The translations under genes and the position numbers were made by a program. The notes beneath the pieces were generated by a model. That model did no database searches and was not told where the DNA came from. It saw only the letters and a program-made list of their open reading frames with translations. This document shows, in pieces, positions 1 through 60,977 of a stretch of 64,000 nucleotides of DNA. How positions within the stretch are numbered: position 1 is the stretch's first letter; each line of letters begins with the position of its first letter. Location of the stretch: the NCBI GenBank assembly GCA_035301805.1, contig DATGTQ010000079.1, positions 3,672 through 67,671 on the forward strand, given 5' to 3'. Source of the stretch: Tissierellales bacterium. GTDB taxonomy: Bacteria; Bacillota; Clostridia; Tissierellales; DATGTQ01.

Positions 1-221
1 TTGAAAACTATATAAAGGGATGGCGTTTACATCGTTTAGCTAAAATAGATTTAGCAATTTTAAGAATTTCAATTTATGAATTACTATATAGAAAAGATAT
101 TCCTGTAGAGGTTTCTATAAACGAAGCAATTGAAATTGCTAAAAAATTTAGCACGGATGAGTCCTCTAAATTCATTAATGGTATCTTAGGGAGCTTTGTG
201 CGTAAGGATATGAAGAAATGA
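1..221 (+). CDS. nusB: Transcription antitermination factor NusB, C-terminal part (5' end outside window)
   Basis: Frame 3 is open from the window edge and reads [65 protein letters not shown], a typical NusB C-terminus. Stop TGA 219-221 overlaps the next ATG. Confidence 0.8.
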
Positions 222-1171
222 AAAAATATTATTTGGGAATAGATACAAGTGCATATACAACTTCTATAGCCGTTGTAGATAAGGATAGAAATATTATTTT
301 TGATAATAGAAAAGTATTAAAAGTTGAATCAAGAAAAAAAGGTTTAAGACAGCAGGATGCAGTTTTTCAACATTTGAATAATATACCTGATATAATAGGT
401 GATTTAACAGAAAATATAGATGTTGAAAAATTAGATACTGTCTCTGTCAGTGCAAAACCTAGAAATGCGAAGAACTCATATATGCCTGTTTTTGTCGTGG
501 GAAAAGGACAGGCATATATTATTGCTAAAATGTTAAACTTACATTATAAAGAGTTTAGCCATCAAGAAGGACATATTGGAGCTGCAATGATGAGTAATGA
601 TTTAATATATAAAGACAAATTTTTAGCTTTCCATCTTTCTGGTGGTACTACGGAAGTTTTATTAGTTAATAATAAAGAAAAAAATTTTAAAATTGACATT
701 ATTGGTGGTTCTTTAGATATAAGTGTTGGACAATTAATAGATAGAATAGGGGTACAATTAGGATATAGGTTTCCTTGTGGGAAAAAGCTAGATGAAATTT
801 CTAAGAATAGCTCTATTATCCCTTTAAAATATCCAATTAAGACTAAAGGTACTTGGGCTAATTTTTCAGGTATGGAAAACTTTTTTATTAATTTAATACA
901 ACATGAGAAATATGGTGAGGAACAAATTATAAAAACCATGTTCTACACTATTGGTTTAATGCTGGAAAAGCTTATATTAGGAACATGCAAGAAAACTAAT
1001 ATTAATACTATTGTTCTTATAGGTGGTGTAGCATCTAATTCTATTATAAAGGAATATCTTTTGGGTAATTTAAGAAAAAAAGGTATTAATGTATTTTTAA
1101 CTAATAATAAATTATGTACTGATAACGGGGTCGGGGTAGCTTACTTAGGTACAATCAAGGATGGACACTAA
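218..1171 (+). CDS. Kae1/TsaD-like ASKHA-fold protein (glycoprotease / M22 family)
   Basis: 317-aa ORF with N-terminal [15 protein letters not shown] and an HQEGH metal-binding-type motif, as in the TsaD/Kae1 family. ATGA overlap with nusB. Confidence 0.6.
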
Positions 1172-1185
1172 TAGGAGGTGAAAAA

Positions 1186-2403
1186 ATGAAGGAAAAACCT
1201 TTAAAAGTTAGTGAACTAAATCAATATATTAAAAGAGTATTTGCTAGTGATTTTATTTTATCTAATGTTAGTGTAGAAGGAGAGATTTCTAATTATAACC
1301 ACCATTATAGCGGACATAGGTATTTTTCTCTAAAAGATGAAAAGGGAAGACTAAAATGTGTACTATTTAAAAACAATAGTAAATGTTTAGATTTAGATCT
1401 AAAAGATGGCATGAAGGTTATAGTATCAGGGTATGTCTCTATTTATGAGAGAAATGGTAACTATCAATTATATGTGAAAAGCATCAAAAAAAGTGGATTA
1501 GGGGATCTATATATAGCATATGAAAAATTAAAGAAAAAACTTAATAACGAAGGTATGTTCAATGATGATGAAAAAAAGGAAATCCCTTTTTATCCAAAAA
1601 CTATAGGAGTAGTAACATCTTTAACTGGAGCGGCTATAAAAGATATTATAACTGTACTTAGAAGAAGAAACCCAGGAATAAATATAATTATATATCCTTC
1701 ATTAGTTCAAGGTAAAGAAGCACCAAAATCTATTTGTGAAGGGTTAAAATATTTAGATAATAGAGAGGATATAGATCTTATTATTACTGGCCGAGGTGGT
1801 GGTTCAATAGAAGAGCTTTTTGCATTTAATGATGAAGAAGTGGCAAGAACTATATTTAACATGAAAACTCCTGTTATATCGGCTGTGGGACATGAGACTG
1901 ATTTCACAATTGCAGACTTTGTTAGTGATTTAAGGGCTCCTACGCCATCGGCAGCTGCAGAACTAGCAGTCCCTAAGGTGGAGAATTTAAAGGAGAACGT
2001 AGATAATATATATGATAAATTATTACACGAGTTTCTAAACATAAAAGATTTTAAACAAAATTACTTAACTATCTTAAAAAAGGACTTAGAACATAATAAT
2101 CCAATGTCTAAATTAAATGAAAGCAGACAAGCCCTAGACTATTTATTCAAAGAACTTAATTATAATATGAATATACAAATTGAAACTCATAAGAACAATT
2201 TAAAGCAGATAGGTAATAAACTTAATTTATTAAGTCCTTTATCGTCCTTAGAAAGAGGGTACAGTATAGGAACAAATAATAAAGATAAGGTAATAAAGTC
2301 TATTTATGATATAAAAACTGGCGATTTTGTTAATATTATTTTAAAAGATGGTATTATAAGTGCAAAAGTGGAAAATATTAAGGAAGGAGAGTTTATAAAG
2401 TGA
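1186..2403 (+). CDS. xseA: Exodeoxyribonuclease VII large subunit
   Basis: 405 aa. N-terminal OB-fold region (LKVSELNQYIK...VEGEISN) and catalytic-core motif TGRGGGSIEELFAFNDE. SD GGAGGTG upstream. Confidence 0.9.
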   Translation: MKEKPLKVSELNQYIKRVFASDFILSNVSVEGEISNYNHHYSGHRYFSLKDEKGRLKCVLFKNNSKCLDLDLKDGMKVIVSGYVSIYERNGNYQLYVKSIKKSGLGDLYIAYEKLKKKLNNEGMFNDDEKKEIPFYPKTIGVVTSLTGAAIKDIITVLRRRNPGINIIIYPSLVQGKEAPKSICEGLKYLDNREDIDLIITGRGGGSIEELFAFNDEEVARTIFNMKTPVISAVGHETDFTIADFVSDLRAPTPSAAAELAVPKVENLKENVDNIYDKLLHEFLNIKDFKQNYLTILKKDLEHNNPMSKLNESRQALDYLFKELNYNMNIQIETHKNNLKQIGNKLNLLSPLSSLERGYSIGTNNKDKVIKSIYDIKTGDFVNIILKDGIISAKVENIKEGEFIK

Positions 2404-2633
2404 GTTTAGAAAATATGTCCTATGAAGAGGCAACTAAGAAGATGGAAAAGATAGTTAGCAAGTTGGAAGGTGGAGAACTTACTTTAGACGAAGCCTTAGA
2501 TAACTTTAAAGAAGGCATAGAATTATATAAATATTGTAATAGTATTTTAGACAAAGTTGATGATAAAATAAAGGTATTGGTAAAAGATGATGAAAATAAT
2601 ATATTAGAAGAGGATTTTTCAACTGGAGGCTAA
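2400..2633 (+). CDS. xseB: Exodeoxyribonuclease VII small subunit
   Basis: 77 aa. YEEATKKMEKIVSKLEGGELTLDEAL matches the XseB helical hairpin. 4-nt overlap with xseA. Confidence 0.9.
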   Translation: MSLENMSYEEATKKMEKIVSKLEGGELTLDEALDNFKEGIELYKYCNSILDKVDDKIKVLVKDDENNILEEDFSTGG

Positions 2634-2637
2634 AGTT

Positions 2638-3507
2638 ATGGATTTAAAACAAGAATTAGAGGCCTATGGAAATATAGTAGATGAAGAATTGAATAAATTA
2701 TTTATTAACAAGAATGGTTACCAAAAAACAGTAATTGAATCTATGGAGTATAGTTTATTTACTGGAGGCAAAAGATTACGTCCCGTACTTTTATTAAAAA
2801 GTTGTGAAGCTTTAACAGGGGATTATAAAGATGCAATTCCTTTTGCTTTAGCAATGGAGATGATACATACTTATTCACTTGTACATGATGATTTGCCTCC
2901 AATGGATAATGATGATTATAGACGAGGAAAGAAGACAAATCATAGAGTATATGGCGAAGGAATGGCTATTTTAGCTGGTGATGGATTGTTAAATTTAGCA
3001 TATGAATCAACAATAAATTATATAATAAAAAATTCTAATTCTAAAGAAGATTTTGAAAGATATATATATGCCCTTGATGTAATAGCAAAATCTGCTGGTA
3101 TAAATGGAATGATAGGAGGACAAGTAATAGATATAGAGTCAGAAAATGAAAATATTAATATAGATACTTTGCATTGTATGTATGAAAATAAAACGGCGGC
3201 ATTAATAAAGGCATCTGCTATTGCTGGGGGGATAATAGGTAAAGGTAATGAAAAGGAAATAAAAAGCTTAGGGGAATTTGGTTTGGCTATTGGTCTAGGT
3301 TACCAAATAAGAGATGATATATTAGATTTAGAAGAGGATAAAATAGCTAATAAAACAACTTATATATCCTTTTATAAAAAAAATGAAGCAGAAAAAAAGG
3401 TAAGAGAATTAAGTCTAAAGGCTATAAAGATACTGGAAGATTTAAAAGGCCATGATACAAGGTTTTTAGAAAGCTTTGCAAGGTATTTAATTAATCGAGA
3501 ATATTAG
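2638..3507 (+). CDS. ispA: Farnesyl/geranyl diphosphate synthase (polyprenyl synthetase)
   Basis: 289 aa. First Asp-rich motif LVHDDLPPMDNDDYRRG and second motif YQIRDDILD. Confidence 0.9.
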   Translation: MDLKQELEAYGNIVDEELNKLFINKNGYQKTVIESMEYSLFTGGKRLRPVLLLKSCEALTGDYKDAIPFALAMEMIHTYSLVHDDLPPMDNDDYRRGKKTNHRVYGEGMAILAGDGLLNLAYESTINYIIKNSNSKEDFERYIYALDVIAKSAGINGMIGGQVIDIESENENINIDTLHCMYENKTAALIKASAIAGGIIGKGNEKEIKSLGEFGLAIGLGYQIRDDILDLEEDKIANKTTYISFYKKNEAEKKVRELSLKAIKILEDLKGHDTRFLESFARYLINREY

Positions 3508-3522
3508 CAGTTTTTCTTCATA

Positions 3523-3551
3523 TTGAAATCATAGAATTATTATGTTATAAT
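3523..3551 (+). promoter_or_regulatory. Sigma-A type promoter for the ORF-free RNA unit
   Basis: TTGAAA (3523-3528), exact 17-nt spacer, TATAAT (3546-3551), directly after the ispA stop. Confidence 0.6.
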
Positions 3552-3557
3552 ATTGTT

Positions 3558-4126
3558 GAGTCTGAGTGGTACAGTATTCTAGTCAGCACAGCTATTCTTG
3601 AAGGCGGGGCTAAAAATCCGTCAAAGGGCACATCGATGAAGTTTCTTGTTATAGCTTGCGACGCCCAGTTGGGGGCTATAACAGGGAGTAAGAAGGATGG
3701 GGCGATCCACAATGGCATGTGGGCGTTGACCCTACCTTCGTGGAGACTTATTATAAATTTTATAATAAGATAAACCTGAAAAGCAATAAAACATGCTTTC
3801 AGTGTAGCCTGCCTTGAGTGAAATAGGCAGATGATAATAATTGTCGAAACCTATTTTGCAAAAGAGGCTAGGGAATAAACTGGCTGTAGAGGAAAACTCC
3901 TAGACTGTTCTAAATATGGAGGTATATTAGGGATTACAGTGCGGACTAAGTGGTAATCTAGTTCTATTTATGGCGACATAATAGGGATAAGATTAAAGGG
4001 AAACCGCTGTAATGGCGACATACAGTTCTTATTTGGGAAATCCTGCTAGACCTTAAGCCGTAAGATTTACCTAACATACCACCACTCATTAGGCTGATAG
4101 CATAATAATAAGGCTATCAGCTTTTT
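3558..4126 (+). ncRNA. ole: Large structured noncoding RNA, probable OLE (ornate, large, extremophilic) RNA
   Basis: About 570 nt with stops in all frames and visibly higher G+C than the flanks. Bounded by a promoter (3523-3551) and an intrinsic terminator (4091-4126). Long-range 8-bp closing helix 3563-3570/4081-4088, plus local helices 3645-3655/3675-3685, 3707-3711/3718-3722 and 3809-3814/3825-3830. The ispA-RNA-oapA-tlyA-argR-recN synteny is as published for OLE. Confidence 0.7.
4091..4126 (+). terminator. Intrinsic terminator at the 3' end of the RNA unit
   Basis: Perfect 9-bp stem GCTGATAGC (4093-4101) / GCTATCAGC (4113-4121), 11-nt loop, then TTTTT (4122-4126). Confidence 0.75.
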
Positions 4127-4156
4127 ATATTAATTTTTTTGGAGGTTATATATTAA

Positions 4157-4741
4157 ATGGCAAGGAAAGAAAAGGTCTCATATAACATCAAATGGATATT
4201 ATCAATTTCATTTTGGACTTTTTTAATGGCAATTTTATTTAGCTTTATTACTGAAAAATTGTTGATTAATTTAGATATATTATTTGGATTTTTAATACTT
4301 ATAATTATAGTTTTTATTGGAATATTTTTTGATATAATAGGAATAGCAGTTACGGTTTCTAGTGAAAAACCTTTTCATTCAATGGCTGCTAATGGAGTCG
4401 ATGGAGCTAAACAGGCTATAAAATTAATTAGAAACGCTGGACAAGTTTCAAATTTTTGTAATGATGTAATTGGAGATATAAGTGGTATTATTAGTGGTGG
4501 TGTAGGGGCAAACATTATATATAAATTAATAAATATATATAGTATAAAAGATGGCACATTGTTAAGTATTATTATTACAGCATTAGTTGCATCTTTAACA
4601 GTTGGTGGAAAGGCTTTGGGAAAAGAAATTGCTATTTTTTATTCTGAAAAAATAATTTTTAGAGTGGCAAAATTTTTTGAAACCTTAGAAACAAAGTTTA
4701 ATATAAATATACTACCAGATATCAAAAAAAAGAATGATTAA
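4157..4741 (+). CDS. oapA: Small polytopic membrane protein, probable OLE-associated protein A
   Basis: 194 aa with about 4 hydrophobic spans. It lies immediately downstream of the structured RNA, the defining position of OapA. SD GGAGG sits 9 nt upstream of the ATG. Confidence 0.65.
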   Translation: MARKEKVSYNIKWILSISFWTFLMAILFSFITEKLLINLDILFGFLILIIIVFIGIFFDIIGIAVTVSSEKPFHSMAANGVDGAKQAIKLIRNAGQVSNFCNDVIGDISGIISGGVGANIIYKLINIYSIKDGTLLSIIITALVASLTVGGKALGKEIAIFYSEKIIFRVAKFFETLETKFNINILPDIKKKND

Positions 4742-4768
4742 AACGATTATGTTTTCAGGAGAGATATT

Positions 4769-5575
4769 ATGGACAAGAAAAAAAGAATAGATGTACTATT
4801 AGTTGAAAAAGGCTTTTATAGTACTAGAGAAAAGGCTAAACGAGTTATAATGGAAGGAGTAGTTTTTGTTGGGGAAAATAGAATAGATAAGCCTGGTGAA
4901 AAAATAGATATAGATAGTAAAATAATTGTAAAAAAGGACCCAATTCCTTACGTTGGTCGGGGAGGATTAAAACTAGAAAAGGCTATAAATAGTTTTAATA
5001 TAGAACTTAGGGGGAAAACGGCTATAGATATTGGGGCATCAACTGGTGGGTTTACTGATTGTATGTTAAAAGAAGGAATAAAAAAAGTTTATGCAATAGA
5101 TGTAGGATATGGACAGCTAGATTGGAAATTACGTAATGATAATAGGGTAGTTGTCAAAGAACGGACTAATATTAGATATGTAAAAGAAGATGATATAGGA
5201 GAGAGAGTTGATTTTATCTCTATTGATGTTTCTTTTATATCCTTAAAGTTAGTATTGCCAGTAGCTGAAAGTTTGTTAAAAAAAGAAGGGGAAATAGTAG
5301 CTTTAATTAAGCCACAATTTGAAGCTGGTAGGGAAAAGGTAGGTAAAAAAGGTTTAGTTAAAGACAAAGGAGTCCATTTTGAAGTAATAAAAAAAATATT
5401 GAATGTTTGTAGTAAGAATAATTTACAATTAGATAACCTTACTTATTCTCCAATTACTGGTGCTACAGGTAATATAGAATTTTTAGCTCATTTAGTAAAA
5501 GAGACTAATCTAGATGTAACTTTAAGTGAGCTTCAAATAAAAGAAATAATTGAAAATGCTCATAAAAGATTATAA
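4769..5575 (+). CDS. tlyA: TlyA-family rRNA 2'-O-methyltransferase (hemolysin A-like)
   Basis: 268 aa. N-terminal S4 domain (RIDVLLVEKGFYSTREKAKRVIMEG) followed by an FtsJ-like SAM fold (AIDIGASTGGFTDC). Confidence 0.85.
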   Translation: MDKKKRIDVLLVEKGFYSTREKAKRVIMEGVVFVGENRIDKPGEKIDIDSKIIVKKDPIPYVGRGGLKLEKAINSFNIELRGKTAIDIGASTGGFTDCMLKEGIKKVYAIDVGYGQLDWKLRNDNRVVVKERTNIRYVKEDDIGERVDFISIDVSFISLKLVLPVAESLLKKEGEIVALIKPQFEAGREKVGKKGLVKDKGVHFEVIKKILNVCSKNNLQLDNLTYSPITGATGNIEFLAHLVKETNLDVTLSELQIKEIIENAHKRL

Positions 5576-5608
5576 TTTTTTGTTATTTCTTTTATTAAGG
5601 AGGAAAAA

Positions 5609-6061
5609 ATGAGAAAATATACGAGACAAAGAAAGATATTAGAATTAATAGATAATAAAGAAATAGAAACTCAAGAAGAATTATCTGAGAATCTGGAGGA
5701 AATAGGTATATCTATAACTCAGGCTACTATATCAAGGGATATCAAGGAACTTGGTTTAGTAAAAGTTATTACCAATAATGGACGTTATAAATATTCAGCT
5801 ATTGAGGACAATAGGGAAAGTAGTAAAGAAAGATTGATGAAAGTCCTTAAAAGTTCTATAATTAATTTTGAGGTAGCTGGACATATTATAGTTATTAGTA
5901 CTTTACCTGGTGCAGCACAGATTTGTGGATTAGCCATAGATAGTTTTGAGCTAAAAGGTATAGTTGGAACTATTGCTGGCCATGATACATTATTTGTTGC
6001 TGTAGATGATATCAATAATGTGGACAAGGTTATTGAAAAGTTAAAAACTTTACTCAATTAG
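5609..6061 (+). CDS. argR: Arginine repressor
   Basis: 150 aa. Winged-helix N-terminus (RQRKILELI...QATISRDIKELGLVK) and C-terminal oligomerisation motif GTIAGHDTLFV. Confidence 0.85.
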   Translation: MRKYTRQRKILELIDNKEIETQEELSENLEEIGISITQATISRDIKELGLVKVITNNGRYKYSAIEDNRESSKERLMKVLKSSIINFEVAGHIIVISTLPGAAQICGLAIDSFELKGIVGTIAGHDTLFVAVDDINNVDKVIEKLKTLLN

Positions 6062-6076
6062 CCAAGGAGGTATCAT

Positions 6077-7774
6077 ATGCTTGTTGAGTTGAATATTAAA
6101 GATTTTGCAATATTAGAAAATTTAAATATTAATTTTACTAAAGGTTTCAATATTTTGACTGGTGAAACTGGTGCTGGTAAATCTATTATTGTTGAGGCCA
6201 TAAGCCTAATTTTAGGGGAAAGAGCTAGTAAGGATTTAATTAGAACGGGTAGTCATAAAGCAGTTATTGAAGGTGTTTTTTATTTGGAAAAACCAATGGA
6301 AATTAGGCAAGGATTAATTGAATATGGTATAGACCTAGGGGAAGATAATTATTTAATTTTATCTAGGGAAATTTTTTCTACGGGAAGAAGTGTTTCAAGG
6401 GTAAATGGTAGGACTGTTACTTTATCTATGCTTAATAAAATTACGGAAAATCTAATAGACATTCATGGACAACACCAACACCAATCATTATTGAATATTG
6501 AAAATCATATAAAAATAGTGGATACTTTTGGTGATGCTAATTTTAACAAAATAAAAGAAAATATATCAAAAAAATACATAAAATTAATGGAGTTAAAAAA
6601 GAAAGTAAATAATTTATCTATGGATACTATAGAAAGAGATAGAGAAATTGATTTACTTAAATACCAGCTAGAGGAAATAAATAGTGCTAATTTATCTATT
6701 GAAGAGGAAAAAGAAGTAGAAAATGAATTTAAAAAAATGTCTAATACAAAGGAAATTACTTCTACAGCTGGAGAAGTAATAGATATTCTAAATTCAAATG
6801 ACTATAATCGTTCTTCAGTTTTAGATGAATTAAACAATAGTATCACCTTAATGAATAATATAGAAACATATGATAAAAAGCTAAAAGAAATTAGTGATTC
6901 ATTGGAAAATTTCAGCTATGAATTACAAGAGGTATCTATTACCTTAATGCAATATATAGAAAGCATTAACTTTGATGAAGAGAAAATGATTTATTTAGAG
7001 GATAGAATGGATATTATCAATACATTGAAGAAAAAGTATGGAAATACTATAGAGGATATTTTTAAATATGAAAATAAAATAAGGGAAAGGTTAAATTTAT
7101 TAATAGATAATGATAATGAAATACAAGAACTTAAAATTCAAATAGCTGAGTTAGAAAAAGAATTAAATGATAGTTGCAAAATTTTATCAAGAGAGAGAAA
7201 AATAATTAGTCAAAAATTAGAAGAAGCTATTTCAAAAGAATTAGGTCAATTAAATATGCAAAAAGTAGTTTTAAAGGTTAATTTTGAAAAAAAAGATTAT
7301 TTTACAAAAGAAGGTTATGATAAAATTGAGTTTTTAATTTCTACTAACTTAGGTGAAGAATTAAAACCTTTATCTAGAATTGTTTCTGGGGGAGAAATTT
7401 CTAGGATAATGCTCGCTTTCAAGACTATCTTAGCTGATTATGATAATGTTCCCTGTCTAATATTCGATGAAATAGATACAGGAATAAGTGGCAGAACTGC
7501 ACAGATAGTTGGTGAAAAGATAAACAAAATTTCAAAAAAACGTCAAATTATTTGTATTTCTCATTTGCCACAAATTGCTGCTTTGGCAGATACACATTTT
7601 TCTATTAATAAAACTATTAAAGAAGGTAAAACTATAACAAATGTAAATAAATTAAGTTATGAAGAAAGAATTAATGAAATGTCTAGATTATTAGGTGGTG
7701 TAGATTTAACTAATACTACTAAGCTTCATGCAGAGGAAATGCTAAAAATGTCAAAAAAATTTAAAAATAAATAA
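6077..7774 (+). CDS. recN: DNA repair protein RecN
   Basis: 565 aa. Walker A GETGAGKS, long coiled coil, signature SGGEISRIMLA and Walker B LIFDEIDTG. Confidence 0.93.
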   Translation: MLVELNIKDFAILENLNINFTKGFNILTGETGAGKSIIVEAISLILGERASKDLIRTGSHKAVIEGVFYLEKPMEIRQGLIEYGIDLGEDNYLILSREIFSTGRSVSRVNGRTVTLSMLNKITENLIDIHGQHQHQSLLNIENHIKIVDTFGDANFNKIKENISKKYIKLMELKKKVNNLSMDTIERDREIDLLKYQLEEINSANLSIEEEKEVENEFKKMSNTKEITSTAGEVIDILNSNDYNRSSVLDELNNSITLMNNIETYDKKLKEISDSLENFSYELQEVSITLMQYIESINFDEEKMIYLEDRMDIINTLKKKYGNTIEDIFKYENKIRERLNLLIDNDNEIQELKIQIAELEKELNDSCKILSRERKIISQKLEEAISKELGQLNMQKVVLKVNFEKKDYFTKEGYDKIEFLISTNLGEELKPLSRIVSGGEISRIMLAFKTILADYDNVPCLIFDEIDTGISGRTAQIVGEKINKISKKRQIICISHLPQIAALADTHFSINKTIKEGKTITNVNKLSYEERINEMSRLLGGVDLTNTTKLHAEEMLKMSKKFKNK

Positions 7775-7806
7775 AAGCATCCTAAAAAAGGATGCTTTTA
7801 TTTATT
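7773..7806 (+). terminator. Intrinsic terminator after recN
   Basis: AAAAGCATCC (7773-7782) / GGATGCTTTT (7790-7799) stem followed by a T-rich tail. Confidence 0.75.
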
Positions 7807-7944
7807 TGGAAAAAAACATTATACTTAGTAAATTGATAAATATTTTTAGAGAATAAATAATATAAAATAAGGCCAAATTATATGTGCAACAATATTTTAG
7901 GGAGGTGAATATTTCATAAGGGACAATTGGGAGTGTGATTATTA

Positions 7945-9258
7945 TTGAGGAAATTTAAAAATAGAAAAATATTTTCTATATTTTTTTTGATTATAGCTTT
8001 TTTTTATATGATACAAATTGCTAGCATTTTTTATTGTCCTAAAGAAATTAGAATAGTTAAAGGGGAAGATAAAGAGTTAGAATTATTATTTCCTTTTAGA
8101 TTAAAAAATCGGGGTAAAGAAAATAAAATTTTAGAAACAACCTTTAACTTAAATAATAGGTCTAAACTAAAAAGGTCTTACAATATTGTGGCTAATCAAG
8201 AAGGAAATGCAAAATTTAATTTAAATATACTAGGTTTTATTCCAGTTAAAAATGTAGATGTTAATGTAGTAGATAGACAGGAACTGATTCTTGGAGGTAA
8301 TTCTATTGGTGTAAGCCTTAATACAAAAGGTGTATTGGTAGTTGCTGTTACTGATATAATAGGTATAGATGGAAAGAACTATAATCCAGCAAGAACTGCA
8401 GGAATTAAAGCAGGAGATAGTATTATAGATATTAATGGTGAGAAAGTAAAAAATGCGGAACATGTAGTTCAATTATTAAATGATTTAAAAGATAGTAGTA
8501 TAAAAATAACTATTGAAAGAAATGGAGCTAATTTTGTAACTAGTGTGACGCCAGTACAAAGCCTTCAAGATAACTGCTATAGACTAGGAATTTGGGTTAG
8601 AGATAAAACTGCAGGTATTGGTACCTTAACTTTTTATGATGAAAAAAGCAAAAACTTTGGAGCTTTAGGCCATGGTATTACAGATATTGATACTGGAAAA
8701 TTATTAAATGTTAGAAATGGTAAAATAATGGATGCTAAAATTGCAAATATTGAACAGGGAAAAAAAGGGGAACCTGGCGAAATAAAAGGAATCTTTTATG
8801 AGACGGAAAATACAGTAGGAGATATAAAAGAGAATACTAATTTTGGTATTTACGGAAAATTAAATGATGAATTTATAAAAAATAATAGAGCAGAAGCCTT
8901 ACCAATAGGATTTAGAGATGAAGTAAAGGAAGGTAAGGCTTATATATTAACTACAATAAATGATAACAAAATTCAAAAATATGAAATAGAAATTTTAAAA
9001 AAGCAGCAGCAATTTTCACCTGAATCTAAAAGTATGGTGATTAAGATAACAGATGAAAAACTTTTAAATAAAACCGGTGGCATAGTACAGGGAATGAGTG
9101 GTAGTCCTATTATTCAAGATGATAAAATAATTGGAGCCGTAACCCATGTCTTTGTAAATGATCCTACAAAAGGTTATGGTCTTTATATAGAGTGGATGTT
9201 GGAACAGTTAAGTATGGGGAAGGGTGAAAAAATTGGTAATGTAGAAGAAGATAGGTAG
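7945..9258 (+). CDS. spoIVB: SpoIVB signalling serine peptidase (S55)
   Basis: 437 aa. N-terminal signal anchor, PDZ-like region (GIKAGDSIIDINGEKV) and catalytic-region GMSGSPII. TTG start. Confidence 0.85.
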   Translation: MRKFKNRKIFSIFFLIIAFFYMIQIASIFYCPKEIRIVKGEDKELELLFPFRLKNRGKENKILETTFNLNNRSKLKRSYNIVANQEGNAKFNLNILGFIPVKNVDVNVVDRQELILGGNSIGVSLNTKGVLVVAVTDIIGIDGKNYNPARTAGIKAGDSIIDINGEKVKNAEHVVQLLNDLKDSSIKITIERNGANFVTSVTPVQSLQDNCYRLGIWVRDKTAGIGTLTFYDEKSKNFGALGHGITDIDTGKLLNVRNGKIMDAKIANIEQGKKGEPGEIKGIFYETENTVGDIKENTNFGIYGKLNDEFIKNNRAEALPIGFRDEVKEGKAYILTTINDNKIQKYEIEILKKQQQFSPESKSMVIKITDEKLLNKTGGIVQGMSGSPIIQDDKIIGAVTHVFVNDPTKGYGLYIEWMLEQLSMGKGEKIGNVEEDR

Positions 9259-9275
9259 ATTTACCTATCTTTTTC
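9250..9275 (+). terminator. Intrinsic terminator after spoIVB
   Basis: GATAGGTA (9250-9257) / TACCTATC (9262-9269) stem that includes the stop codon, followed by TTTTT. Confidence 0.6.
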
Positions 9276-9338
9276 TATTAAATTAAAAAATAGAAAAAAG
9301 GAACTATTATGGTAGAATTAAAGGAAATAAGGTTTCGT

Positions 9339-9345
9339 TGTCGAA
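9339..9345 (+). promoter_or_regulatory. Spo0A-box-like element upstream of spo0A
   Basis: TGTCGAA matches the 0A-box consensus TGNCGAA and sits about 50 nt upstream of the spo0A start. It is embedded in the near-palindrome TTTCGTTGTCGAAA. Confidence 0.35.
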
Positions 9346-9393
9346 AGGAATAAATGAGAGTAATTATTAAATATTAAACAGGGGGTAATTTTT

Positions 9394-10200
9394 TTGGAAA
9401 AAACAACAGTATTGATTGCGGATGACAACAAAGATTTTACCGATATTTTATGCGAATACTTATCCATGCATGAAGATTTTAAAGTAATCGGGGTAGTAAA
9501 AGATGGGCTGGAAGCATTAGAAGAAATGCCTAAGGCGGAACCGGACGTTTTAATATTAGATATTATAATGCCTCATTTAGATGGTTTAGAAGTATTAGAA
9601 AGGCTAAATAGCATGGTGATTAAAAAATATCCTAAAGTAATTGTATTGTCTGCAGTAGGACAAGATAAAATAACTCAAAAAGCTATTAAATTGGGAGCAG
9701 ATTACTATGTAGTTAAACCATTTGATTTTGATATTTTTATAAAAAGGCTAAGGGAAATAGCAGGTAATGCCAAAGAAGAACCAATAAAACGAAATTATAT
9801 TAATATTCCTAAAAAATCCATAAATAATGGTGAAAATCAAGTAAGTGTTGAGGCAAAAATAACTAATATTATACATGAAATAGGAGTTCCTGCCCATATT
9901 AAAGGATATCAGTATTTAAGAGAAGCAATATCTCTGGTTATAGACGATGTTGAACTATTAGGAGCTGTTACTAAAGAACTATATCCAAATATTGCAAAGA
10001 AATATGGTACTACTCCAAGTAGGGTTGAAAGAGCTATAAGACATGCAATAGAAGTTGCTTGGAGCAGAGGTAAAATAGATACTATAAATAATATCTTTGG
10101 ATATACTGTTCATACAGATAAAGGTAAGCCTACTAATAGCGAGTTTATAGCCATGGTGGCAGACAAACTCAGATTAGAACAGGAAATATTACAGTACTGA
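9394..10200 (+). CDS. spo0A: Sporulation master response regulator Spo0A
   Basis: 268 aa. Receiver domain (VLIADDN...[14 protein letters not shown]) and the Spo0A-specific C-terminal DNA-binding domain ([35 protein letters not shown]). TTG start with SD AGGGGGT. Confidence 0.94.
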
Positions 10201-38501: not shown

Positions 38502-40487
38502 TTGCAAATTATTTTAGCAGACCATGCAGGCTATTGTTTTGGTGTAGATAGGGCTATAAATTTAGCCCTGGAAACAATAAATAATTTTAGTGAAGATACA
38601 AATATTTATTCATTAGGTCCATTGATACACAATAAACAAGTGGTAGCTCACCTAAAGAATTTAGGTTTAGAAGTTATAGAAGAAATTTCTAATGAAGGTA
38701 AAGGTAAAATAATTATTAGAGCTCATGGCGTTCCATATGAAATTCAGCAAAATGCCGAAAAAAAAGGCTTTGAGGTTGTTGATACAACTTGCCCTTACGT
38801 AAAAAGTGTCCATAATAGAGTGAAGAATTATCAGGAAAAAGGGTATAAAATAGTTATTATTGGTGATTCTAATCATCCGGAAGTGATAGGAATCAATGGA
38901 TGGTGTAACAATGAAGCTGAAATTATCAATAATATTGAATATGCTAATAGTCTAGATGAATATGAGAAAATATGCGTTGTTTCACAAACTACTAATACTA
39001 AAGAAAAATTTGAAACCCTCTCTGAAATAATTAAGGACAAAGGTAAAGAGGTCAAAATTTTTAACACTATATGTAATGCTACAAAACTTCGCCAAGATGC
39101 TTGTAAAGATGTAGCTCAAAAAGTAGATGCTATGGTTGTAATAGGTGGATTTCATAGTTCTAATACTAATAAATTAGCAGAGGTAGCAAGAAATTATTGT
39201 CCTAGTGTATACCATATTGAAACAATAGAAGATTTACCTTTGCAAGAGGTACTAAAATTTAATACAATAGGAGTAACTGCAGGTGCCTCTACACCTGATG
39301 TCATAATTAAGGAGGTTATAGATACAATGAAGAATTCAAATAATAATATTGATGATCAAGAAATGTTGGAAGCAATAGAAAATTCTTTTGTTAGTATTCA
39401 TCGCGGAGATGTAGTTAAGGGAGAAGTTATAACAGTAACTAATAATGAAGTTATGGTAAATATTAACTATAAATCAGATGGTATAGTTTCTAAAGGAGAG
39501 CTTTCAAATGACCAAGATATAAATCCTAAAAGTCTATATAAAGAGGGAGATACTGTTGAGGTCTATGTAATAAATTTGGATGATGGCGAAGGTAACGTTC
39601 TACTCTCAATTAAGAAAGTTGATAATATTAAAAATTGGGAGAAATTAGAGGAAATATACGAAAATAACGGGGTAATAGAGTGCAAAGTAACTGATATAGT
39701 AAAGGGTGGAGTTATCGGATTAGTTAATGAAATAAATGGATTTATACCTGCTTCTCATTTATCGACTAATTATGTTAAAGATTTGAGCAACTATAATGGT
39801 AAAGTATTTAATGTAAAGATAATTGATTTTGATAAAGAAAAAAATAGAATTATATTATCGAGAAAAAATGTAGAACTAGAAGAATTAGAGAAAAAAAGAG
39901 AAGGTCTATGGGAATCTTTAGAAATTAATAAGACTATTAGTGGAGAAGTAAAAAGATTGACAAACTTTGGTGCTTTTGTTGATTTAGGTGGTGTAGATGG
40001 ATTAATTCACATATCGGATCTATCTTGGTCAAGGATTAATCATCCTTCAGATATTTTAAAAGAAGGTGAAGAAGTTAAAGTAATTGTACAAGATTTTAAT
40101 AAAGAAAAGAATAGAATCTCATTAGGCTATAAGCAAAAGTATCCAAAACCATGGGATGTATTTATTGAAAACAACAAAGTAGGAGATATTGTTGAAGGAA
40201 TAGTAGTTAATCTATTAGATTTTGGAGCATTTGTACAATTAAAAGAAGGAGTAGATGGATTAGTTCACGTTTCTCAAATATCAAATGAGCATGTCCATAA
40301 GCCAAAGGATGTTTTAAGTAAAGGTGATAAAGTAAAAGTAAAAATAATTGATATAGGAGAAGAAGAAAGAATAAGTTTAAGTATAAAAGAGGCTATCCAA
40401 AAAGATATAGAAGATAAAGGTAAATATAATGATGAAAATGAAGAGCCAGAAGTTACTATTGGTGATATGATAAAGGATAAAGAATAA
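38502..40487 (+). CDS. ispH: Bifunctional 4-hydroxy-3-methylbut-2-enyl diphosphate reductase / ribosomal protein S1-like fusion
   Basis: 661 aa. The N-terminal ~280 aa are IspH/LytB (AGYCFGVDRA, TTCPYV, ICNAT Cys ligands). The C-terminal part has four S1 repeats (e.g. GEVKRLTNFGAFVDLGGVDGLIHISD). Confidence 0.88.
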   Translation: MQIILADHAGYCFGVDRAINLALETINNFSEDTNIYSLGPLIHNKQVVAHLKNLGLEVIEEISNEGKGKIIIRAHGVPYEIQQNAEKKGFEVVDTTCPYVKSVHNRVKNYQEKGYKIVIIGDSNHPEVIGINGWCNNEAEIINNIEYANSLDEYEKICVVSQTTNTKEKFETLSEIIKDKGKEVKIFNTICNATKLRQDACKDVAQKVDAMVVIGGFHSSNTNKLAEVARNYCPSVYHIETIEDLPLQEVLKFNTIGVTAGASTPDVIIKEVIDTMKNSNNNIDDQEMLEAIENSFVSIHRGDVVKGEVITVTNNEVMVNINYKSDGIVSKGELSNDQDINPKSLYKEGDTVEVYVINLDDGEGNVLLSIKKVDNIKNWEKLEEIYENNGVIECKVTDIVKGGVIGLVNEINGFIPASHLSTNYVKDLSNYNGKVFNVKIIDFDKEKNRIILSRKNVELEELEKKREGLWESLEINKTISGEVKRLTNFGAFVDLGGVDGLIHISDLSWSRINHPSDILKEGEEVKVIVQDFNKEKNRISLGYKQKYPKPWDVFIENNKVGDIVEGIVVNLLDFGAFVQLKEGVDGLVHVSQISNEHVHKPKDVLSKGDKVKVKIIDIGEEERISLSIKEAIQKDIEDKGKYNDENEEPEVTIGDMIKDKE

Positions 40488-52119: not shown

Positions 52120-52353
52120 TTGAAAGGCCCAATGAATCTTCAAGATGTTTTTTTGAATAGAGCTAGAAAAGAGAGAGTAGGTATTACGGTTTTTTTAGTA
52201 AATGGATATCAGCTAAAAGGTATTGTTAAAGGTTTTGATAATTATACATTAATTCTTGATAGTGAAGGAAAACAACAATTAATTTATAAACATGCAATAT
52301 CAACAATAGTACCAAGTACAATTATAGATTTAGCTAATAAAGATACATTATAG
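52120..52353 (+). CDS. hfq: RNA chaperone Hfq
   Basis: 77 aa. [41 protein letters not shown]...[10 protein letters not shown] covers the Sm1/Sm2 motifs. TTG start with SD GGGAGG +7 nt. Confidence 0.9.
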
Positions 52354-59075: not shown

Positions 59076-59336
59076 CTATCTTGGTTCAACAAGGAACTTT
59101 ATTGCTGTCCTTTCTTCTCCTTCAATTTCAATGTCAGTAAAAGCTGGTATACAAATTAAATCCATACCACTTGGTGCTACAAAACCTCTAGAAATAGCAA
59201 TAGCTTTAACAGCCTGATTAATTGCACCTGCACCGATTGCCTGAATCTCCGCATTCCCTTTTTCTCTTAAGACTCCAGCTAATGCTCCTGCAACAGAATT
59301 TGGACTTGATTTTGCTGATACTTTTAATACATCCAT
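59076..59336 (-). CDS. spoVS: Stage V sporulation protein S
   Basis: 86 aa. MDVLKVSAKSSPNSVAGALAGVLREKGNAEIQAIGAGAINQAVKAIAI is nearly invariant SpoVS sequence. Confidence 0.93.
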   Translation of the reverse strand: MDVLKVSAKSSPNSVAGALAGVLREKGNAEIQAIGAGAINQAVKAIAISRGFVAPSGMDLICIPAFTDIEIEGEERTAIKFLVEPR

Positions 59337-59444: not shown

Positions 59445-60977
59445 CTATTTTGCATATTCTATTGCTCTTGTTTCTCTTATAACATTAATCTTAATTTGTC
59501 CAGGGTAATCTAGCTCCTGCTCAATTTTTTTTACGACTTCTCTTGCAATATGAGTAATGTAATCATCACTTATTTCATCAGGTTTTACCATTATTCTTAA
59601 TTCACGACCAGCTTGTATAGCATAAGATTTTTCTATTCCCTCAAAGGAACTGGCTATATCCTCAAGCTTTTCAAGCCTCTTTATATATGTTTCTAAGGTT
59701 TCCCTTCTTGCACCAGGTCTTGCAGCTGATATAGCATCTGCTGCTTGTACTAATACAGCCTCTACTGTTTGAGGCTCAACATCTCCATGATGAGCTGCTA
59801 TTGCATGAAGGACTTCTTTAGACTCTTTATACCTTTTTGCAAAATCTACACCAATAGTAACATGAGGACCTTCAATTTCGTGATCCACAGCCTTACCTAT
59901 ATCATGTAATAATCCCGCTCTCTTTGCAACCTTAATATCCACACCTAACTCTGCAGCCATAGTTCCTGCAAGATGGGCTACCTCTATGGAATGCCTTAAT
60001 ACATTTTGGCCGTAACTACTTCTGTACTTTAATCTTCCTAATAATTTCATTAGTTCAGGATGAAGATTGTGTACTCCCACATCAAAGGCAGCTTGTTCGC
60101 CTTCTTCTTTTATAATAACATCTACTTCTTTCTTGGCCTTTTCAACCATTTCTTCAATTCTAGCTGGATGGATTCTTCCATCTGCTATTAGTTTTTCCAA
60201 TGCAATTCTAGCAACTTCTCTTCTAATTGGATCAAAACCTGATAATACTACAGCTTCTGGAGTATCATCGATTATTAAATCTATTCCTGTTAATGTCTCT
60301 AATGTTCTAATATTCCTACCTTCTCTACCTATTATACGCCCTTTCATTTCATCATTAGGTAAAGGTACCACTGTTACCGTAGTATCAGCTACGTGATCAG
60401 CAGCACATTTTTGAATTGCACAAGAAATAATTTTCCTTGCCCGCTTTTCAGCTTCTTCTTTAGCCTTACTTTCATGTTCTTTTATCATAATGGCAGATTC
60501 ATGAACTATTTCTTTCTTAACATCATTTAATAGTGTTTCTTTTGCTTCATCAGTAGTGAGTCCTGACAACCTTTCTAACTCATCTACTTGTTTTTCATAA
60601 AGCTTACCAATTTCATGTTCCTTTTCTTCTAAACGCTTTGTTCTTTTAGTTAGAAGTTCTTCTTTTCTATCAAAGTTTTCACTTTTTCTATCAATAACTT
60701 CTTCCTTATTAACAAGCCGACGCTCTAATCTTTGAAGTTCAGTTCTTCTTTCTCTATTTTCTTTCTCTATTTCAGTTCTCATTTTATGAACTTCCTCCTT
60801 GGCTTCAAGGAGTAGTTCCTTCTTATGAGATTCACCATCCCTCTTAGCATCGTCAAGAATCTTTTCAGCTAATAATTCAGCATTACCAATTTTTCCTTCA
60901 CCAATGGTTTTCCTTATATAATATCCAATGACAATTCCTATTATAACACTTATAATAACAGCTATTAAAAGTTCAAT
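59445..60977 (-). CDS. rny: Ribonuclease Y, with N-terminal membrane anchor requiring a non-canonical start
   Basis: KH domain ([15 protein letters not shown]) and HD domain (LLHDIGKA). The track starts at ATG 60782, but the frame is open to 60995 and encodes [47 protein letters not shown], the conserved Rny TM and coiled coil. SD GGGAGG lies 9 nt before ATT 60977. Confidence 0.85.

Follow-up and report, generated by a model that had tools for sequence, protein, structure and literature searches.

Identification of the OLE RNA and its gene neighborhood

The intergenic gap that follows ispA and the gene after it almost certainly represent the OLE RNA and its membrane partner OapA, a known RNA-protein system, in a member of the Tissierellales. 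The ole-oapA locus belongs to a class of element described before, and its identification was uncontradicted. The window, the whole 64-kb stretch of DNA that was analysed, derives from an uncultured Tissierellales MAG. OLE identity, proposed in the initial annotation from the letters alone, was confirmed with the Rfam covariance model RF01071, which scored 498.4 bits (E 3.2e-143), roughly tenfold the gathering score of 50. This was the sole Rfam match within the 64 kb. Using nhmmer, OLE was found immediately upstream of oapA at all related loci whose sequence extended far enough upstream. The two elements of the locus are as follows.

3550..4101, + strand, OLE RNA, matched to RF01071 over model positions 1-616 of 616, untruncated
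4157..4741, + strand, oapA, product a membrane protein of 194 aa, CNNM-like domain, DxxxD motif at D103-D107

On the + strand, the gap (3508-4156) had no ORF reaching 50 aa, and its G+C content was 0.41-0.43 compared to approximately 0.24-0.30 in the flanks, as had been described for it. An antisense ORF of 57 aa (3545-3718) was rejected as a gene. It sits within the most conserved RNA helices, has no support and is probably due to chance.

The gene order was nusB (just outside the window), a TsaD-like gene, xseA, xseB, ispA, OLE, oapA, tlyA, argR, recN, spoIVB, and spo0A. The genes between 218 and 10200 share one strand with short gaps between them. Genes for dxs, nadK, OapB, OapC, and MpfA were searched for across the 64 kb and none were found. 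The absence of dxs and nadK had been pointed out before and stands, but it is not an oddity of this locus, being the norm for the clade among 76 related loci. In 51 of these oapA was directly followed by tlyA, while the other 25 had a dxs-sized insert of 1.9 kb, whose identity as dxs was checked and confirmed for one locus (L025). Among the 42 loci in which both tlyA and argR were found, a single one had nadK between them.

Structure and conservation of the RNA

An alignment of 70 sequences was used for covariation analysis, comprising the window OLE and the OLEs located upstream of oapA in 69 relatives. RNAalifold predicted 156 pairs, with compensatory changes in 91. The resulting fold added P1, P2, P3, and P3.1, which are left out of the Rfam structure line. 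By model match and covariation, domain 1 of the OLE fold is composed of P3-P9 and domain 2 of P1, P2, and P10-P15. The helix names are our own mapping onto PMC12265935. The parts of the RNA, in order of their 5' ends, are listed below.

3563..3570, + strand, 5' strand of P1, pairing with 4081-4088, conserved core GUGGU at 3566-3570
3571..3598, + strand, 5' strands of P2 (3571-3574 and 3578-3582, including a CUAG palindrome), P3 (3584-3587) and P3.1 (3593-3598)
3603..3622, + strand, P4 hairpin with A-rich loop CUAAAAAU at 3609-3616, invariant in 70 sequences
3631..3641, + strand, P4a and J4a-5, palindrome CAUCGAUG at 3631-3638 followed by GAAG, columns invariant or nearly so
3642..3688, + strand, P5/P5.1 hairpin with loop GCCCA at 3663-3667
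3692..3739, + strand, P6/P6.1 hairpin with loop AUGGCA at 3712-3717
3747..3769, + strand, P7, a short all-A/U hairpin, span 25 nt compared to a clade median of 29
3776..3802, + strand, P8 hairpin, span 25 nt, equal to the clade median
3805..3870, + strand, truncated P9, stem base and middle retained, cap GAUGAU-AAUA-AUUGUC at 3830-3845
3872..3908, + strand, 3' strands of P3.1 (3872-3877), P3 (3883-3886) and P2 (3900-3908, with CUAG)
3889-3899, + strand, P10 hairpin GAG-GAAAA-CUC, enclosed among the 3' strands of P3.1, P3 and P2 (Rfam match, RNAalifold)
3909..4080, + strand, domain 2 core with a small hairpin at 3909-3920, many double changes overall
3921-3931/4070-4080, 3940-3944/4058-4062 and 3957-3962/4045-4050, + strand, nested long-range helices of domain 2
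3964-3984, + strand, P13 with GCGA loop at 3973-3976 and bulged U3969
3985-3992/4027-4034, + strand, P14 (Rfam match, RNAalifold)
4006-4026, + strand, P14.1 with GCGA loop at 4015-4018
4081..4088, + strand, 3' strand of P1, ACCACUCA (RNAalifold and covariation)

Taken as a set, the helices first drawn from the sequence were 90% paired in the alignment compared to 36-55% when slid, and none of 500 shuffles reached the observed values. Three of them were recovered in the Rfam structure: 3645-3655/3675-3685 is P5, with double changes in 8 of its 11 pairs; 3692-3696/3735-3739 is P6, with 97.1% of cells paired and double changes; and 3707-3711/3718-3722 is P6.1, 100% paired and also with double changes. 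A fourth, 3809-3814/3825-3830, was not upheld. Its strands are complementary and 93.6% of cells are paired, but it had zero double changes, and it was rejected as part of the accepted structure; it cannot form together with the consensus base of P9.

The pairing of the two ends (3563-3570 with 4081-4088) held for the inner 5 bp (3566-3570/4081-4085), while the outer 3 bp were kept only partly. The inner pairs (alignment columns 10-14/641-645) were paired in 97-100% of the 70 sequences, with 22 compensatory cells. P3 and P3.1 also covary, with 32 double changes at columns 39/422 and 21 at columns 41/420. The 11-nt direct repeat ATGGCGACATA at 3970-3980 and 4012-4022, which had been noticed as a repeat, makes up the tips of P13 and P14.1, two conserved hairpins with GNRA (GCGA) loops.

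Putative counterparts of several protein and dimer contact sites described for OLE were located. The P4 loop is described as RNA dimer bridge B1 (PMC12265935, PMC12286853). In H. halodurans the P4a palindrome is a mapped OapA site, and GAAG contributes to the OapC k-turn (PMC12265935, PMC9723947). The nucleotides flanking P5, GAUGAAGU and AGUAAG (J4a/5 and J5/6), are the putative OapC k-turn strands and were invariant or nearly so in the 70 sequences. The OapB site is characterized by the P13 GNRA loop and a single-nucleotide bulge (PMC7936274), and both were present here at the sequence level. The P12.2-P13 segment (41 nt) and P14.1 (29 nt) had spans equal to their clade medians of 41 and 29.

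Measured from P1 to P1, the core was 520 nt (3566-4085). The aligned stretch, with a few flanking bases, was 535 nt compared to 552-613 nt in the 69 relatives. Shorter natural variants count as OLE (PMC11332333). Substructures P1-P15 were all present save distal P9.

Probable loss of distal P9

The OLE homodimer is held by bridges at L4, L5/L6/L7, and L9.3. The sole real deviation of this OLE copy, missed in the initial annotation, concerned the last of these. Approximately 40 nt of distal P9 were absent, consisting of P9.3 with the GGGCCC kissing loop L9.3. Alignment columns 341-384 were a gap in the window OLE only. The inner span of P9 was 38 nt in the window and 73-84 nt in 134 of 141 loci, with a clade median of 78. 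The L9.3 GGGCCC loop is dimer bridge B3 (PMC12286853). The sequences of the dimer-contact loops of P4, P5.1, and P6.1 were intact. The RNA may well be a natural working OLE, canonical save for the clean loss of the P9.3 arm and of the kissing loop that makes bridge B3.

The 649-nt OLE gap was found base-for-base identical in three assemblies from different pipelines (ENA k141_353072, Logan SRR5699024_56935 and the NCBI TPA MAG). These may share one read set, and the protein record links to run SRR5699024. An assembly artefact, the real OLE having a normal P9.3 arm with its GGGCCC loop, would fit with the presence of the arm in 69 of 69 aligned relatives, including the closest (OapA 80% identical). 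The deleted segment is a hairpin, an inverted repeat of the sort that assemblers can mishandle, and the possibly shared read set of the three assemblies also speaks for it. This explanation is nevertheless improbable given the agreement between pipelines and the junction, which leaves a clean, capped stem that folds well (truncated P9, -20.9 kcal/mol, z -4.6). In addition, short P9 arms of 36-51 nt occurred independently in four other lineages, and shorter P9 stems have been described for OLE "variant 1" (PMC11332333).

The loss of the bridge could also mean that the RNA was disabled and that the locus is a decaying, non-functional relic on its way to being lost, as the missing dimerization element is highly conserved elsewhere. 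Such decay is very improbable. All other segments were of clade-typical length, conserved nucleotides agreed with the Rfam model, and the promoter, terminator, and oapA frame were intact, with OapA retaining all residues invariant across 23 aligned homologs. The literature also presumes function for natural OLE variants that have no P7 and P8 or a short P9.

Regarding the age of the loss, contigs of the close OapA homologs P0007 (85%) and P0003 (81%) began just upstream of oapA, without OLE. The contig of P0001 (93% in OapA) began inside the 3' end of OLE, short of P9. A metagenome scan gave no closer relative with OLE attached.

To return to a working OLE that has lost P9.3, dimerization could, judging from the sequence, be altered or weaker than in the solved Clostridium structures. 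Should the loss be real, either the P9 "arch" is dispensable in a full-size OLE particle or the RNA is put together in another way in this lineage, for instance as a looser dimer or a different oligomer. A P9.3-less OLE would be a natural mutant, useful for testing the arch and the need for the dimer bridge.

Promoter, terminator, and transcription

The transcription and translation signals around OLE were as follows.

3523..3551, + strand, sigma-70-type promoter, -35 TTGAAA at 3523-3528, 17-nt spacer, TG at 3543-3544, -10 TATAAT at 3546-3551
4091..4130, + strand, intrinsic terminator, 11-bp stem with core GCUGAUAGC at 4093-4101 pairing with GCUAUCAGC at 4113-4121, an 11-nt loop, then UUUUUAUAUU
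4141..4145, + strand, oapA ribosome-binding site GGAGG, read off the sequence, 11 nt before the ATG

The promoter had been called near-consensus, which was borne out: 11 of 12 consensus positions matched, with an extended -10 TG in addition. In 65 of 69 relatives OLE was closely preceded by the pattern TTGAnn-17-(TG)nTATAAT. A second promoter-like site within OLE (3726-3754) was discounted, its -10 element falling within the variable P7. The description of the terminator as strong also agreed with the fold of 4086-4135, an 11-bp stem (4091-4123) with a U tract (-15.4 kcal/mol, z -4.9). An automated terminator scan with a loop limit of 8 nt overlooked it because of the 11-nt loop. A hairpin and U tract were found downstream of OLE in 67 of the 70 sequences, and exactly the same 9-bp terminator stem in 53. 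Conserved throughout the clade in sequence as well as in shape, this 3' hairpin after P1 may serve the RNA beyond termination.

We infer a transcript start at approximately 3558-3559. The OLE transcript is predicted to extend from about 3558 to about 4130, a length of roughly 570 nt. The terminator and the oapA ribosome-binding site are separated by only 30 nt, which hold no promoter, and the most likely source of OapA is therefore read-through transcription.

That missing oapA promoter is also compatible with OLE being chiefly processed from a long nusB-xseAB-ispA-ole-oapA-tlyA operon transcript, the promoter and terminator being minor. The same-strand, closely spaced genes from 218 to 10200 agree with this, and a single polycistronic RNA covers the cluster in H. 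halodurans (PMC12265935). This route is possible but rather doubtful as the chief source. OLE is flanked directly by the extended -10 promoter on its 5' side and by the hairpin with U tract on its 3' side, and the conservation of these signals in the relatives would be hard to explain if they were unused. Operon processing and an own transcript are not mutually exclusive.

OapA

The 194-aa protein had been proposed to be OapA-like, and its sequence, its fold, and the OLE adjoining its gene in relatives all agreed. The only domain match was to PF01595, with 26.2 bits compared to a cut-off of 28.4. The DxxxD motif (D103-V-I-G-D107) had both Asp residues invariant in 23 homologs. DxxxD is distinctive of OapA, whose CNNM match is sub-threshold (PMC11332333). 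The protein is deposited as "hypothetical protein" HLR34358.1. A further trait of OapA is the lack of the proline conserved in CNNM domains; the only prolines of this protein are P72 and P187.

About four TM spans had been estimated, and an AlphaFold model (pLDDT 76.7) likewise predicted long helices at 11-38, 41-67, 94-127, and 130-161. By hydropathy there were three strongly hydrophobic segments and one amphipathic helix, which bears the DxxxD. The top five PDB matches with Foldseek were CorB/CorC structures (MtCorB 7M1T/7M1U and CorC 7CFF), with a probability of 0.91-1.00, a TM-score of 0.42-0.54 and an identity of 12-17%. A PDB sequence search with OapA at E up to 1 gave no match, and CorB was found by fold comparison only.

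Proposed mechanism and significance

The conserved extended -10 promoter at 3523-3551 would give rise to an RNA of about 570 nt starting near 3558 and ending at the conserved hairpin terminator at 4091-4130. By analogy, OapA, a predicted four-helix relative of the CNNM/CorB Mg2+ transporters with DxxxD, would bind the palindromic sites near P2 and P4a and keep the OLE RNA at the membrane. Cooperative binding to OLE RNA is counted among the traits of OapA. OapB would bind P13 at its GNRA loop and bulged U, and OapC (YbxF) a k-turn built by the strands on either side of P5. Two OLE RNAs may dimerize, the P4, P5.1, and P6.1 loops being available for contacts and the third bridge, the P9 arm, being lost. 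The OLE particle would support the cell under Mg2+, cold, and alcohol stress and on poor carbon sources. These functional statements are drawn from PMC12265935, PMC9723947, and PMC12286853 by homology to H. halodurans and Clostridium. Membrane localization and the stress phenotypes (Mg2+, cold, alcohol) are known solely from experiments in H. halodurans (PMC12265935).

OLE is among the largest conserved bacterial RNAs still without a known reaction. Recent cryo-EM work reportedly points to a membrane-spanning dimer. Thousands of OLE representatives have already been catalogued, and this locus adds little that is new, as any Rfam scan detects OLE here. Its value is modest: it allows HLR34358.1 to be annotated as OapA and offers an otherwise canonical OLE with no P9.3.

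Comparison with known systems

The window RNA resembles full-length OLE (RF01071; H. halodurans, Clostridium acetobutylicum, and C. botulinum) in its helices P1-P15, distal P9 aside, and in matching the full model. The P4 loop CUAAAAAU, the P5.1 loop GCCCA, the P6.1 loop containing UGGC, the GNRA loops on P13 and P14.1, and the P13 bulge are common to both. So are the CUAG and AUCGAU palindromes and the place between ispA and oapA in a nusB...recN cluster. It differs in having lost approximately 40 nt of distal P9, including L9.3, and in its short all-A/U P7, which is clade-typical. The window OLE has its own conserved promoter and terminator, while for H. halodurans a polycistronic transcript is documented.

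OLE "variant 1" has shorter P7, P8, and P9, often has no P13 OapB site, and is commonest in the TANB77 clade (Fernando and Breaker 2024, PMC11332333). The window RNA shares with it a shortened P9 stem. It was not assigned to this variant, as only P9 is short, P7 and P8 being clade-typical and the P13 GNRA loop and bulge intact. The hosts also differ, the window coming from a Tissierellales bacterium with sporulation genes and "variant 1" from a reduced-genome gut symbiont.

The protein, compared by its described features, is like H. halodurans OapA in having about 200 aa, four predicted TM helices, DxxxD, a CNNM-like domain just below the Pfam cut-off, no CBS or CorC domains, and a gene immediately downstream of ole. 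With MpfA, CorB, and CorC it has the membrane-domain fold in common. Unlike these, OapA has no cytoplasmic CBS pair/CorC domain and has instead an extra transmembrane helix, the DxxxD motif, and an RNA partner.

Identity and conservation of the OLE RNA

The region between ispA and tlyA was initially annotated as an OLE locus, in which the large structured RNA OLE (Rfam RF01071) lies upstream of oapA, the gene for its membrane partner OapA. Every feature described there was found in place, and the interpretation was borne out by the Rfam match, the features of OapA and the OLE-oapA linkage. The RF01071 covariance model, the key check proposed with that annotation, scored 498.4 bits at 3550-4101 (+), where the gathering score is 50 (E 3.2e-143; model positions 1-616, untruncated). 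This was the sole Rfam match when the entire 64-kb window was scanned. The gap (3508-4156) contained no (+) strand ORF of at least 50 aa and had a G+C content of 0.41-0.43, compared to about 0.24-0.30 in the flanks. A 57-aa antisense ORF at 3545-3718, within the most conserved RNA helices, was taken as chance.

An OapA homolog alignment gave 80 related loci from species-representative genomes, and a single-protein query gave 80 more from metagenomes. An nhmmer search with the window OLE as query placed an OLE directly before oapA in all loci whose upstream sequence was long enough. In the three metagenome contigs with the closest OapA relatives (L083, L084, L085), no more than about 120 nt precede oapA. 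Assembly apparently tends to break off at the OLE gene or within it, perhaps due to the near-identity of this gene between co-occurring strains.

Promoter and 3' hairpin

The annotated promoter TTGAAA-17-TATAAT (3523-3551) scored 11/12 against consensus and has an extended -10 TG. The layout TTGAnn-17-(TG)nTATAAT was present immediately 5' of OLE in 65/69 relatives. A promoter-like TTGACC-17-TATTAT (10/12) at 3726-3754 inside OLE is probably chance: the -35 overlaps the conserved 3' strand of P6, and the -10 falls in the variable P7.

The terminator was also recovered, as an 11-bp stem (4091-4123) followed by a U tract (4086-4135 folded; -15.4 kcal/mol, z -4.9). The automated terminator scan missed it because of its 11-nt loop, compared to 3-7 nt in relatives. 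A hairpin and U tract were located 3' of P1 in 67/70 sequences. The stem GCUGAUAGC/GCUAUCAGC occupies the same place in the genome loci, where its sequence is kept and not its shape alone. It was exact in 53/70 sequences, and its CUGAUAG..CUAUCAG core was present in 66/79 genome loci and 22/60 metagenome loci. These relatives had OapA proteins only 48-80% identical, and the stem was better conserved than the OLE helices P7 and P8. The role of the hairpin may go beyond termination. The oapA ATG is separated from the terminator by only 30 nt, within which lies a GGAGG ribosome-binding site; the spacing suggests that OapA is most likely translated from read-through transcripts. Such expression would yield far more OLE RNA than oapA message.

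Gene neighbourhood

The gene order is nusB (just off the window), a TsaD-like paralog, xseA, xseB, ispA, OLE, oapA, tlyA, argR, recN, spoIVB and spo0A. The lack of dxs and a NAD kinase gene had been presented as a departure from the usual arrangement. Neither was found anywhere in the 64-kb window, so the absence stands; the peculiarity does not. tlyA was directly 3' of oapA in 51/76 related loci, and among the 42 loci in which both tlyA and argR were located, the gap between them was big enough for an extra gene in L071 only, where the ORF encodes NAD kinase. The absence is therefore the clade norm. The other 25/76 loci carried a 1.9-kb insert after oapA, which was dxs in L025, the one tested.

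The TsaD/Kae1-like paralog (218-1171) lies between nusB and xseA. Housekeeping TsaD was rejected as its identity (134 bits, far under the equivalog cut-off of 296). The same gene was upstream of xseA in about 45/80 related OLE loci. The window ORFs scanned included no MpfA-type CNNM-CBS transporter. Ordinary core Firmicutes genes elsewhere in the window were:

38502-40487, IspH(LytB)-S1 repeat fusion
52120-52353, hfq
59076-59336 (-), spoVS
59445-60782 (-), RNase Y

Helices

Window 3558-4092 was aligned with 69 full-length homologs (n = 70). RNAalifold predicted 156 pairs, 91 of them with compensatory changes. Helix names are our own mapping onto the updated OLE model (PMC12265935), with which the following four helices agree.

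Helices predicted by RNAalifold and unpaired in the Rfam structure line
3566-3570 with 4081-4085 (+), P1
3571-3574 and 3578-3582 with 3900-3908 (+), P2
3584-3587 with 3883-3886 (+), P3
3593-3598 with 3872-3877 (+), P3.1

Three helices of the initial annotation correspond to P5 (3645-3655/3675-3685), the P6 base (3692-3696/3735-3739) and P6.1 (3707-3711/3718-3722). The terminal helix of that annotation was supported: the inner 5 bp paired in 97-100% of the sequences, and 22 cells were compensatory. Its five helices together had 90% of cells paired, compared to 36-55% with the 3' partners slid, and 0/500 shuffles reached the observed values. The fifth, 3809-3814/3825-3830, had 93.6% of cells paired and 0 double changes; it cannot form together with the consensus P9 base and was therefore not accepted. 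The P9 base register is GCCUU/GAGGC in Rfam and UAGCCU/AGGCUA in RNAalifold, and covariation cannot choose between them as both are invariant in the alignment set.

The direct repeat ATGGCGACATA (3970-3980 and 4012-4022) forms the tips of two hairpins corresponding to P13 and P14.1. Both end in UG-GCGA-CA, a GNRA tetraloop. In H. halodurans P13 is the primary and P14.1 the secondary site for the OLE-binding protein OapB, and binding needs a single bulged U on P13 (PMC7936274). Judged from its sequence, the window P13 also has this bulge (U3969).

A short P9 arm

The aligned stretch of the window OLE was the shortest of the 70 (535 nt compared to 552-613). The difference is one alignment gap (columns 341-384): about 40 nt are absent from distal P9, among them the GGGCCC loop, which is otherwise nearly invariant. 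This loop is L9.3; in the cryo-EM structure its self-complementary core forms dimer bridge B3, and the core shows covariation between palindromes (PMC12286853). The remaining P9 has a clean fold with a short cap, and the other bridge loops, P4, P5.1 and P6.1, are intact. The inner P9 span was 73-84 nt in 134/141 OLE loci and 38 nt in the window and two near-identical contigs. An assembly artefact is improbable as the cause of the short arm, the OLE region being identical in contigs of two other assembly pipelines; those assemblies may derive from one read set, so a small probability is kept for it. Short P9 arms (36-51 nt) were also found in four distant lineages (L145, L131, L150, L151; OapA 41-51% identical), whose P7 regions are long (47-63 nt), unlike that of the window. 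Loss of the P9 arm therefore appears to have arisen several times independently.

The published variant 1 OLE also has shortened P7 and P8 and is often without the OapB site (PMC11332333). All other segments of the window OLE were of clade-typical length, so it is not variant 1.

OapA and comparison with known systems

The 194-aa product of 4157-4741 (+) has the features expected of OapA. The CNNM transmembrane domain scored 26.2 bits, below the Pfam cut-off of 28.4, and no NCBIfam model matched. This is the published behaviour of OapA, which clusters just under true CNNM/MpfA proteins (PMC11332333). The DxxxD motif is D103-VIG-D107, with both Asp invariant in 23 homologs. By hydropathy, three of the approximately four TM spans first proposed were strongly hydrophobic, and the remaining segment, which bears DxxxD, was amphipathic. 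The AlphaFold model has four long helices (pLDDT 76.7). Its five best PDB matches were to the archaeal CNNM MtCorB (7M1T, 7M1U) and bacterial CorC (7CFF), reproducing the published OapA-CorB similarity. The database entry HLR34358.1 has exactly this sequence and is labelled a "hypothetical protein" ("MAG TPA: Tissierellales bacterium", 68,696-bp contig). Only the loss of the P9.3 arm in one copy and this OapA annotation gap are new here; the RNA belongs to a long-known, well-catalogued family, and the standard model detects it with about ten times the threshold score.
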